From Flaccisagitta enflata (lineage: Eukaryota), in assembly GCA_965153355.1 (NCBI GenBank), contig OZ231126.1:35340001-35404000 (forward strand): DNA of 64,000 nt, read 5' to 3'. Below are positions 38,101 through 41,100 of the stretch, in pieces. Numbering within the stretch: position 1 is the stretch's first letter; each line of letters starts with the position of its first letter. Position numbers and translations under genes: made by a program. The notes below the pieces were generated by a model. The model searched no databases, was not told where the DNA came from, and saw only the letters and a list, made by a program, of their open reading frames with translations.

Positions 38101-41100
38101 CCGACCATGCAAGGCATTTCAATTTGTCTGCAAGGTTGCAAAAGGCAAAGAAGATTGCGAGGACCTGTGGAGAAGTGCAACAATGCTATCGTGACGAGCT
38201 GCTGCAGGAGATCCTCAATAAGAGGGTCCCTCATCTTGCAGATAAATTCTGGGAAAAGCAACATGAAGCAGCCCAAAACGGACAATCATTTTCATTCGAC
38301 AACTTGGTCAACATGATTGAGACATGGGCGGTGATTCAGCGCAACAAAGGCGCAAGTTGCAAAACAGTATCAGTGGCAGCAGTTGCGACGACAGAAAAAG
38401 AGGCGCCATCATCATACGAGGATGCCTTGACCAATGGCAAGCAAAAGGTGCAGTCGACGGACCGCTGCAACGTCTGCAGTGGAATGCATCAAACGGAAGA
38501 GTGTCATCAGTTGTTAGAGTTGGAAGTGGACGCGAGAGTTCAGAAGATCATGTCTCGTCGTCTTTGCTTCCACTGCCTCGCGCCAGGTCACAACGCCAAA
38601 GGATGCGCGAACAGACCAACTTGCCAGACCTGTAAGAAGCGGCACGCGACAATTCTCCACGGGCGCACCTACAAGAAAGAAGAAAAGGAAGAGAAGAAAG
38701 GAGAAAATAAGCAGGGAAATAAAGTACCGCTAGCTCCCTTCAAAAAGTCAGAGGATGCGGCTGCAGCAGCACCAACAGCTCCGTCGACGGCGGGGGCAGA
38801 TCCAACGGAAGTGATCTCTCCTAACGCCACGGCATGACTGGCGGCACGGCAACGCGCGCGGTCCGTCTCTTCATTCGACGACGTTGTCCGTCCGATCGTT
38901 CCAGTGACTATCATAAACAATTCTTCGGGTGCGCAGAGGACGATATACGCTATATGATCGACTCAGGCGCTGATCGCGACGTGATCAGTACCAATTGTTC
39001 GCAGTCTTCTAATTCCAACAAAAACAGTAAAATGACGGTGATTACTGTGGGAAATCGTGTTGTTGAAGATCGTTTCATCACATCATTCACCATGCAATCG
39101 GTCGACGAGGAATATGTCGTCGACGTCAACGACGCGTTGGTGGGTGATTTGTTAACGAGTGAACGCGACATTCCTCCTTTTCTCCGCGACCTATCTGACC
39201 AACCTCACATCAGAGACATAAAATTTCCAGAAGCTGAAGGCGGTGTGATGATGATCATCGGAGCGGCGCATGCGGATGCCGCCGTCGCTCAAGAAATCCG
39301 CCGAGGGCCTTCAGGATCTTTGACTTGCTTCAGATGTCTATTTGGTTGGACTGTATGTGGAAAAACGGGGAAGAGAGGACGAGATATTGCATCGATCAAC
39401 GCTATCGCGACGGATGATCGCGTCCTCAACGACAACATCGATCGCATCCTCGACAATCGCGTCCTCAACAGCAACATTGACCGCATCTTCTACCATGACT
39501 TTGCATCATCAATCGTCTCGCAAGAGGAGATGGGTGATTCCCTTGAAAATGTCAGAGCGTGCAAAATGTTGGAGGAAAAGACATATTTTTGCCCAATCGT
39601 GAAAAAATATTTCGCTCCTGTCACATGGAAATTTCATCACGAAAAAATCATGGAAATTCTGAGAAGAGTGAGGTCACGACCTACTGCGATGAAGCGGCTC
39701 GGCAACCAACGTTTCCGCTTCAAGCGTGATCCAGCCTTCAAAGAAAGAGTCTTCCGTGAAATCGAGAAATTTTACGAGACGGGAGTGGCGATTGAGATTG
39801 ACGGCGTCGACGACGACGACAGCATCGAGAAGCCGCGCTGGTACTTGCCACTTCACATTGTGGAATTGCGTGGTAAAACGCGCGTATGCCACGATGCGCG
39901 TGCGGCGACCGACGGGATCTCACTCAATGATTTGCTCGTCGGAGGCCCAAACTTGATGAATAGCCTGATGGACATCCTCATGCGTTTTCGTCAGTGGAAA
40001 ATCGCCTTTATGTGTGATATAAAGGCGTTTTTCCACCAAATCCGCGTCCATCCTGACGACGCTGATTTATTCAGATTCTTTTGGTTCAAGGATCGTACTC
40101 TACGGGAAGCAATTTTGAATCTGTTTTTATCACACGTCTTCGGCAGCCAATCCAGCTCATTCGTCACATCTTTCACCGTCAGGAAGCATGCTGAAGTAAT
40201 CCGGCCCAAGTATCCCTACAACGTCTACGATCTTATTCGCTACGGCTTCTACGTCGACGACGGAAGTGGGGGTGGGGATTCGGTCGACGAAGCACTGCAG
40301 CTGAAGGTGGATTCAGTGGCGGCGATGGCTGAAGGCGGGATGGATCTTGTGAAGTGGAAAAGTAACGCGCGACAATTGATGGATGGAGATCCAAATGTGC
40401 CAATCCCCATTTCAGATAAGCAAGATGATGCGCCGACGAAGGTGTTGGGCGTCTCATGGCTTCCGGCGGAAGACGTCTTCATCTTCATCTGCGACGAAGA
40501 ATTCAAAACTCTTAGAGCAAAAACACCTCGTCAATTGGTCTCCATGCAAGCCAAACTTTACGATCCATTGGGATTTTGGAGCCCAAGCGCATACATCGGC
40601 AGACGACATCTTCAACTCTGTCGTCCACAGGAAGTGGGATGGGATTCGCCCTTGGAAGAGAGCGTCGAGGAATCTTTCTTCCGTTACACTTCATCTTGGC
40701 CTCTTCTACAACAATATCGAATTGAACGCTGGTGGAATGGCGGCGTCGACAACAGCGACATTGCGGAAGTCACAATCGAGTTATTTTGCGATGCGGCTCC
40801 AAAAGGCGGATATGGAGCAGTTGCATATCGACGTCAAGTCAACCGAAATGGAGATGTTCACATTTCATTCATTGCCTCCAAATCTCACGTCATTCCACTC
40901 AATCCAAAACGTGCCTCTCATCATAACAGCGTTCCACGCGTCGAGATTGTATCCGCAGAAAAAGCAGTGCAGCTCAAACGCTTCGTCGGAAGGACCATCA
41001 ACTTGGACAATCTTGTCGTCAGATTTTGGTCTGATTCTGAATCTGCACTGAAGATGATTTACAATCCGGCAAAACCGAGGCCTGTATTCTTCGCCAATCG

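Follow-up and report, generated by a model that had tools for sequence, protein, structure and literature searches.

A clade of BEL/Pao retrotransposons with a conserved UGA-CU(A/G)-G codon context between gag and pol, a probable site of programmed stop-codon read-through

We analysed 64,000 nucleotides of DNA from Flaccisagitta enflata (contig OZ231126.1, positions 35,340,001 to 35,404,000 of the forward strand; this whole stretch is called the window below). At 34041..47277 on the + strand it carries a jumping gene which, by its sequence, is a long terminal repeat (LTR) retrotransposon of the BEL/Pao superfamily. Its gag and pol genes lie in one frame with a UGA codon between them, and comparison with copies and relatives makes it very probable that the clade to which the element belongs sets its Gag:Gag-Pol ratio by programmed read-through of this stop codon. 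Judged from the aligned junctions, the main, conserved signal is UGA-CU(A/G)-G, located in the primary sequence around the stop with a purine or GCA before it. An earlier note on this DNA had proposed that Pol is made by structure-stimulated read-through; the read-through part of that proposal is now strongly supported, while the particular stem-loop named as the stimulator is not.

The gag open reading frame (ORF; 35022..38837, +; 1271 codons) ends with the TGA at 38835-38837 in the context GCA-TGA-CTG-G (38832..38841, +), our candidate read-through site. The TGA-CTG context and the open frame behind it were described in the earlier note and are confirmed: the gag frame stays open beyond the TGA for 39 codons, translating as LAARQRARSVSSFDDVVRPIVPVTIINNSSGAQRTIYAI. 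In this frame the stretch 38838..38957 (+) holds the linker between Gag and protease together with protease strands 1-2, and it is broken in the window copy near 38845-38856 and 38952-38955. That the post-stop stretch is the N-terminus of the protease is borne out by two comparisons. In an alignment with HIV-1 protease (weak, E-value 0.012, with retroviral proteases making up 21 of the 24 matches) RPIVPV falls on residues 8-13, and an invariant Arg after the stop corresponds to Arg8. A domain model made from a natural copy has the retropepsin fold, with its first two strands formed by the post-stop segment. Because of the invariant Arg and of the two strands in the modelled fold we regard the segment as needed protein. 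The active-site DSG of the protease follows at 38960..38968 (+), its Asp being invariant in 19 aligned sequences.

Indels private to the window copy lie near 38845, 38856, 38952-38955, 38997 and 39029. An ATG overlaps the stop in the -1 frame (38834..38836, +); it is not the pol start, as its frame closes early in other copies, and the long ORF that begins there in the window is an accidental product of the five indels together. It had been claimed before that the ORF starting at 38834 is in the wrong frame up to an offset at about 38952. This holds, and the offset is private: it is seen in none of the 29 other copies compared, and at the places of the private indels the contigs of four public sequencing runs carry the other copies' state. 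Two further private indels (∼38845 and ∼38856), overlooked earlier, sit in the 5′ arm of the proposed stem, so that the window copy differs from all other copies in codons 3-7 behind the stop and in the pairing drawn there. In the 4 kb downstream, comparison with two other copies revealed >40 small, mostly deleting indels in the window copy. Going by this pattern, consensus error is probably a likelier source of the many indels than age, and the loss of frame is probably in part an assembly error.

Copies of the focal family were compared using the 30 best genome copies, window copy included. All 30 have TGA-CTG, as do seven further copies, and none has a sense codon in place of the stop. Among the 29 other copies, 28 have pol in the same frame as gag up to and including the protease motif, and in 11 of 28 scored copies no stop interrupts this frame before the locus ends (∼650 codons). 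One of the 30 copies has GCG rather than GCA before the stop and for this reason lacks the overlapping ATG. A protein search with the protease of another family produced 150 matches, 65 of them from the focal family; in 13 of these the open frame measures 1349-1354 codons and, since no frame is longer than that, none of the 65 is fused. Neither of the two outcomes that had been named as counting against read-through, a sense codon at 38835 or a 2-nt offset conserved in all copies, was observed.

The same junction is found well outside the focal family. We hand-picked 20 loci, spanning ORF-length classes, from 150 Peptidase_A17 matches in the genome; in 16 of them gag and pol share a frame and are separated by TGA-CT at the corresponding position, with Pol 28-42% alike to the focal Pol, and the other four are fused. 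The nearest large group of relatives has TGA-CTA-G in 30 of 30 loci. In the sister family (67-71% nucleotide identity) all five loci have GCG-TGA-CTG-G, and the overlapping ATG is absent. We also considered 45 metagenome loci: TGA-CT is present in all six that score >100 with the protease profile, while 13 have no protease match and 26 score 8-56 and have open frames or unrelated stops. Throughout the clade the UGA directly follows the zinc knuckles and precedes the catalytic Asp of the protease by 30-40 codons.

We grouped these elements into 15 families (the grouping is our own, and one family with both CTA and CTG members was counted by CTA). The families, which include six marine metagenome contigs, are mostly ∼30% alike in Pol. 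TGA-CT is present in all 15, with CTA in 10, G as the next base in 13, a purine before the stop in 12 and GCA before it in seven. Given each family's own Leu codon use, and with independence assumed, the probability that all families have CTN is 1.7e-4 and the probability of at least 10 with CTA is 2e-7; thus, leucine alone does not explain the context. As a control we took the stops that end pol in 11 clade elements (one premature stop omitted); these were five TAA, four TGA and two TAG, with CT next in none. A tally of junction contexts at 104 loci was not used as evidence, since its finder sought a stop followed by CT.

A protein search restricted to 1139-3250 residues gave 283 matches; the best 19 all begin at or after the junction, and weaker ones are mostly fused. 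A search of viral contigs returned 186 pattern matches and no relative. The reverse transcriptase (RT) tree had 93 rows, 33 of them loci (two short loci were skipped) and the others taken from the 45 best plus 17 named of 120 proteins listed; it was a quick IQ-TREE run with a midpoint root. The proteins in it are unnamed or 'uncharacterized' Peptidase_A17 proteins, and the tree holds no named BEL/Pao reference elements (BEL, Pao, Tas, Suzu, Sinbad). One branch, with a Shimodaira-Hasegawa-like approximate likelihood ratio test (SH-aLRT) value of 99, unites all 21 UGA rows with 19 Pol-only proteins and a single row that lacks a junction; all 43 fused rows and one Pol-only protein fall outside it. 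On this comparison gag-UGA-CT-pol is a character of one RT clade without a fused member.

What is known of such contexts comes from several systems. Reporter assays have shown that UGA-CUAG drives read-through, that UGA-CUA alone gives 1.5%, that GCA or a purine before the stop favours it and that UGA is better than UAA or UAG; four vertebrate read-through genes conserve UGA-CUAG (PMC4132726). The UGA-C context is leaky (0.3-5%), and type II sites, UGA-CUA or UGA-CGG, often have a 3′ stem (PMC3542737, PMC3159437). As for the characteristics of a type II site, a single UGA precedes an in-frame ORF in our elements and the CUA triplet follows it in two-thirds of the families (10/15). The Gag to Pol ratio that retroelements need is about 20:1 (PMC2194720). 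We propose that most ribosomes would halt at the UGA and release Gag, while in a few per cent of ribosomes a near-cognate tRNA would decode the UGA and give Gag-Pol, which the protease would cleave afterwards; in some families a 3′ RNA structure, not a shared fixed element, may add to the context signal.

Several points weigh against this reading. CUA-G is the context with the best test record, and the focal family has CUG-G instead. In Tca2, which has a similar-looking gag-UGA-pol junction, background read-through only was seen in yeast (PMC2194720). Conservation at four-fold sites is not raised after the stop (37/63 for codons 1-12 and 86/160 for codons 1-42, with a background of 477/897; P 0.22 and 0.47), and unusually stable post-stop folds were found in just five of the 15 families. 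Also, the searches were seeded with UGA families, in addition to the hand-picking of the 20 genome loci. Still, fused members of the clade would be expected to score high in these searches and none appeared.

The stem proposed in the earlier note (38842..38894, +) can be drawn, and it is a possible alternative fold that is not supported as conserved. The window sequence folds less stably than shuffled sequences, with z of +1.26, +0.78 and +1.71 for 66, 63 and 126 nt and +0.21 against synonymous shuffles. In other copies this stem is the minimum-energy fold of 66 nt (z -1.0); a short competing hairpin there (39 nt) has z -2.5. The place of the hairpin, which has 6 bp and a 4-nt loop and extends from +7 to +22 after the stop, is 38844..38859 (+); it is found in other copies and in the sister family and is damaged in the window copy. 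We compared pairing in 11 distinct focal and sister sequences, where pairing is kept in 66 of 66 cells of the short hairpin, whose loop does show changes, and in 137 of 143 cells of the longer stem. The covariation that had been suggested as a check was not seen, double changes being zero in either of these proximal folds, and one pair of the longer stem is broken in all three sister sequences. With no compensatory change to its credit and a short rival hairpin of equal fit, this stem is a doubtful candidate for the stimulator of read-through. The consensus fold contains most of it plus a distal helix with four double changes in eight pairs, all of which hinge on one family split.

In the large group of relatives a rod spans +13 to +114 and keeps 95% of cells, with double changes in four of 30 pairs (five of 33 in another register). 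When 15 hand-picked sequences were compared with 500 shuffles, the double changes were equalled in 16/500 and the covariation score in 0/500; these counts are no probability, because the structure was derived from the same related data. For the 120 nt after the stop, set against synonymous shuffles (window copy and one mis-framed row, L036, left out), z is -2 or lower in eight of 21 elements, corresponding to the five families mentioned above, focal family included (-2.5); among other pol windows this is so in 6/84. Taken together, these comparisons suggest that a 3′ structure is probably present in some families and is not a shared signal.

Among rival explanations for Pol synthesis, the best survivor, though highly unlikely, is that Pol is made from a separate RNA (by an internal promoter or by cis- or trans-splicing) or that a splice removes the stop. 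A weak promoter at the junction has been described in Tca2 (PMC2194720), the LTRs contain acceptor-like signals, and CUA-G includes YAG. However, no pre-stop pyrimidine tract was found in 16 elements (13-57%), and in six of these 16 AG is missing from the four bases after the stop. A contig from an RNA run, which may be DNA, covers 38301-39597 without a joint. Two families have no in-frame Met until after the catalytic Asp (codons 67 and 253), and a separate RNA would leave the constancy of UGA-C unexplained.

There is a slim chance that ribosomes terminate and then re-initiate in frame just downstream, at AUG or CUG. The second codon after the stop is an in-frame AUG in two families and the first codon is CUG in five; yet the first Met anywhere is found at codons 2-253 and is not conserved, and the codon in 10 of the 15 families is CUA, a poor start codon. 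The UGGGA motif is absent within 60 nt upstream in all 16 elements, and a free Pol would require another path into the particle. Two families (L033:2521-2530, L035, L056:321-330) have no G after the first codon, and here the second codon is an in-frame ATG and the 3′ stems are long and stable. Re-initiation could contribute in this subclade.

Slimmer again is the chance that UGA is recoded in some other way, whether by A-to-I editing to UGG, as selenocysteine, or in a host code with sense UGA. Editing would yield an in-frame Trp, and a 3′ stem could serve editing or selenocysteine insertion. Against this, the same RNA-run contig, with the same caveat that it may be DNA, has 10 A>G differences and none at 38837; the pol frames, hundreds of codons long, have no other TGA, and TGA terminates pol in four of 11 elements. 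A search of the element with Rfam gave three weak chance matches, no selenocysteine insertion sequence (SECIS) among them.

We consider an AUGA stop-restart at 38834 of the kind used by victoriviruses (PMC3542737), or a frameshift, to be of negligible probability. ATGA does occur in nine of 16 elements, and the ATG frame enters pol in the window copy and in one other copy, which has an indel of its own. The copies refute the restart: of 28 others scored, 26 have a stop in the ATG frame after 45 codons and one has it after 28. Its continuity in the window depends on the five private indels, the ATG is missing in seven of the 16 elements, the ATG frame meets a TAA three codons upstream, and a slippery heptamer is lacking. 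Just as negligible is the idea that a fused gag-pol element gave rise to a non-autonomous lineage which spread a nonsense TGA. Fusion does prevail among BEL/Pao relatives outside the clade, but the idea is refuted by the same stop and context in 15 families from several hosts, with long open pol behind and no fused clade member. Read-through of the UGA is the explanation that we prefer.

The start of reverse transcription is another point on which the clade stands apart. A primer-binding site starting with TGG and matching a tRNA is usual, not defining, for BEL/Pao; it was found in none of nine clade elements versus two of two fused controls. In the window copy the 5′ LTR occupies 34041..34958 (+; 918 bp, TGT...ATA, ends set by the target-site duplications), and the primer-binding position behind it (34959..34969, +) lacks a tRNA-type TGG. 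Instead, it is complementary to 34820-34830, within an LTR segment of 12 bp with one G-U (34820..34831, +). No tRNA genes were found within the 64-kb window. The nine elements are those with usable LTR ends; in four more no LTR pair was found, and in two the ends were unclear. (In the L031/L032 family tandem repeats within the LTR obscure its ends.) In all nine, the sequence that begins with the first base behind the LTR forms 6-13 Watson-Crick pairs with a stretch inside the element's LTR, whereas the two fused controls have no such LTR pairing.

The paired LTR segment lies 84-362 nt before the LTR end and starts at or just after YAG; in eight of the nine elements the 30 nt before it are at least 80% pyrimidines. 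In the window the pyrimidine tract ending in CAG, which resembles a 3′ splice acceptor or an initiator, is at 34792..34821 (+) and is 90% pyrimidine in a second copy. There is one AATAAA, 20 nt downstream of this candidate site (34841..34846, +); it is the sole one in the LTR and likely the poly(A) signal. The LTR has no TATAAA. None of the control words paired as long in six of the nine elements, and the three shortest runs were each matched by four controls. Between two related families there are matched changes on both pairing sides. A looser scan for an acceptor plus its complement found the pattern beside ACA/ATA in a further three elements of the genome and in a metagenome contig and missed it in others; it is only a lead, because two of five fused controls matched too.

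Self-priming is listed for Tf1/sushi and Tcn1 elements (Ty3/gypsy) and has been proposed for the copia element TAR (PMC6317226); in Tf1 the primer is the first 11 bases of its RNA (PMC7175516). As in Tf1/sushi elements (PMC7175516, PMC6317226), the bases after the 5′ LTR in our clade pair with the element's own LTR, over 11 nt in Tf1 and 6-13 nt in the clade. Unlike Tf1/sushi, Tcn1 and TAR as described in the available text, the clade's segment starts at a pyrimidine tract with YAG. The complementarity suggests that the clade primes reverse transcription in a Tf1-like manner from its own LTR sequence. More tentatively, and with doubt prevailing, one may picture an undescribed BEL/Pao clade of marine animals in which both steps that ordinarily depend on the host have been replaced, by combining UGA-CU(A/G)G read-through like that of vertebrates and alphaviruses with tRNA-free priming by an RNA end formed at an LTR splice acceptor, e.g. 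by spliced-leader trans-splicing.

The element is 13.2 kb long, and its 5′ and 3′ LTRs are 98.7% identical. It was placed in BEL/Pao because its Pol holds retropepsin, a weak RVT_1, Peptidase_A17 and DUF5641. The 3′ LTR, identified by LTR comparison, is at 46363..47277 (+), preceded by a polypurine tract at 46348..46362 (+). The target-site duplication (5 bp, TGGGT) has its left copy at 34036..34040 (+) and its right copy at 47278..47282 (+); each of four other copies of the element has its own 5-bp duplication at identical LTR ends. The LTR 3′ end (34950-34958) has TATA, not CA, in the focal family, and the LTR of one relative seems to start with TA instead of TG. The element sits within an array of 71-bp tandem repeats (33960-34040 and 47278-49250).

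Gag gave no match in a Pfam search. A pattern search located three Cys-His zinc knuckles at its C-terminus (38466..38660, +), an arrangement typical of BEL/Pao. The Gag of the window copy is unusually long, with a glutamine-rich middle at 35930-37560. Within Pol, the RT core (RVT_1; 39959..40369, +) scores below the Pfam cut-off and contains YVDD at 40250-40261; it is followed by the Peptidase_A17 (Pao) domain (40523..41038, +; E 1.3e-28) and by DUF5641 with the pol stop TAA at 42883-42885 (42592..42885, +). The integrase region of the window copy is frameshifted from ∼41800, and the closest database proteins additionally carry PF17921 and PF00665; the domain order is that of BEL/Pao, i.e. protease, RT, RNase H, integrase. 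The stretch 41800-46400 is rich in indels although the LTRs differ by merely three substitutions.

A third ORF of ∼700 codons (43235..45322, +), recognized by ORF comparison among copies, is in pieces in the window copy and forms a single frame of 760-804 codons in three of four other copies. It had no Pfam match and no Atlas match above 0.79, and its family was not found. Other families of the clade have ORFs of 220-850 codons at a related position. In some copies a second long frame overlaps the third ORF.

The focal family is large and young: 40 of 711 candidate copies were scored and all are at least 95% identical over 701 bases, the distance to the nearest copy being as low as 0.3%. Public sequencing runs that contain the stretch are mainly marine metagenomes. 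Elsewhere in the window there are long inverted repeats at 31649-32268 (305-nt arms, 10 nt apart) and 25428-25673 (105-nt arms, 36 nt apart), which are probably fold-back elements or resemble miniature inverted-repeat transposable elements. A short dispersed repeat, D17, with ∼16 copies across 23829-62554, consists of a GACG-type microsatellite and then a hairpin-like tail TAGAGT...CGCGAC; it is possibly a small non-autonomous element.

Gammaretroviruses have proven gag-pol read-through, which in Tca2 is unsettled, and BEL/Pao elements usually have gag and pol fused or frameshifted. The clade has in common with BEL/Pao (Belpaoviridae) the order protease-RT-RNase H-integrase, Peptidase_A17, DUF5641, three knuckles and the 5-bp duplication; it differs from the BEL/Pao relatives in our tree, which are fused and lie outside it, and it has a third ORF and no tRNA-type primer site. 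Its junction resembles the type II read-through sites of the alphavirus replicase and of vertebrate OPRL1, OPRK1, AQP4 and MAPK10 (PMC3159437, PMC3542737, PMC4132726), sharing UGA and, in most families, CUA-G; the GCA-UGA of OPRL1 also occurs in seven of the 15 families, and a long 3′ stem-loop as in alphaviruses is possible in some. Unlike in those systems, the site links gag to pol of a retrotransposon, and a third of the families, including the focal one, use CUG. In murine leukaemia virus (MuLV) gag-UAG-pol, too, one frame is used and a low share of Gag-Pol arises by read-through, as we propose for the clade; its UAG-G, 8-nt spacer and compact pseudoknot were not seen here, where all 15 families have UGA-C (PMC3159437, PMC5009743, PMC2194720). 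The Ty1/copia element Tca2 of Candida albicans likewise has gag-UGA-pol in one frame, but it belongs to another superfamily and has a purine-rich spacer and a pseudoknot, and its junction alone gave no read-through in yeast (PMC2194720).

Our literature search, the coverage of which lacked most subscription papers, Repbase and supplements, found no report that BEL/Pao elements use read-through or self-priming. Nothing on a gag-UGA-pol junction came from papers on crustacean, chaetognath and env-carrying elements. The BEL element Kamikaze of Bombyx mori is reported to have been listed by Gao et al. in 2003 with a stop between gag and pol; a single BEL case of a gag-pol stop may therefore be on record already. 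In the available text of the BEL/Pao survey PMC3118150 the terms 'stop codon' and 'frameshift' are absent, as is 'retrotransposon' in that of a 2026 review of animal-virus read-through (PMC13517186).

The window copy illustrates how private indels let one copy imitate an AUGA stop-restart gene, and the 19 database proteins that begin at or after the junction illustrate how gene callers split or mis-start such elements. If self-priming is true, the trait would reach a third LTR superfamily; if, in addition, a splice acceptor sets the RNA end, RNA processing and the onset of reverse transcription would be coupled. With UGA-CUA-G kept across ∼70% Pol divergence, a clade as deep as this would offer natural CUA, CUG and CUC variants, with and without a 3′ stem, with which type II read-through in invertebrates may be probed.

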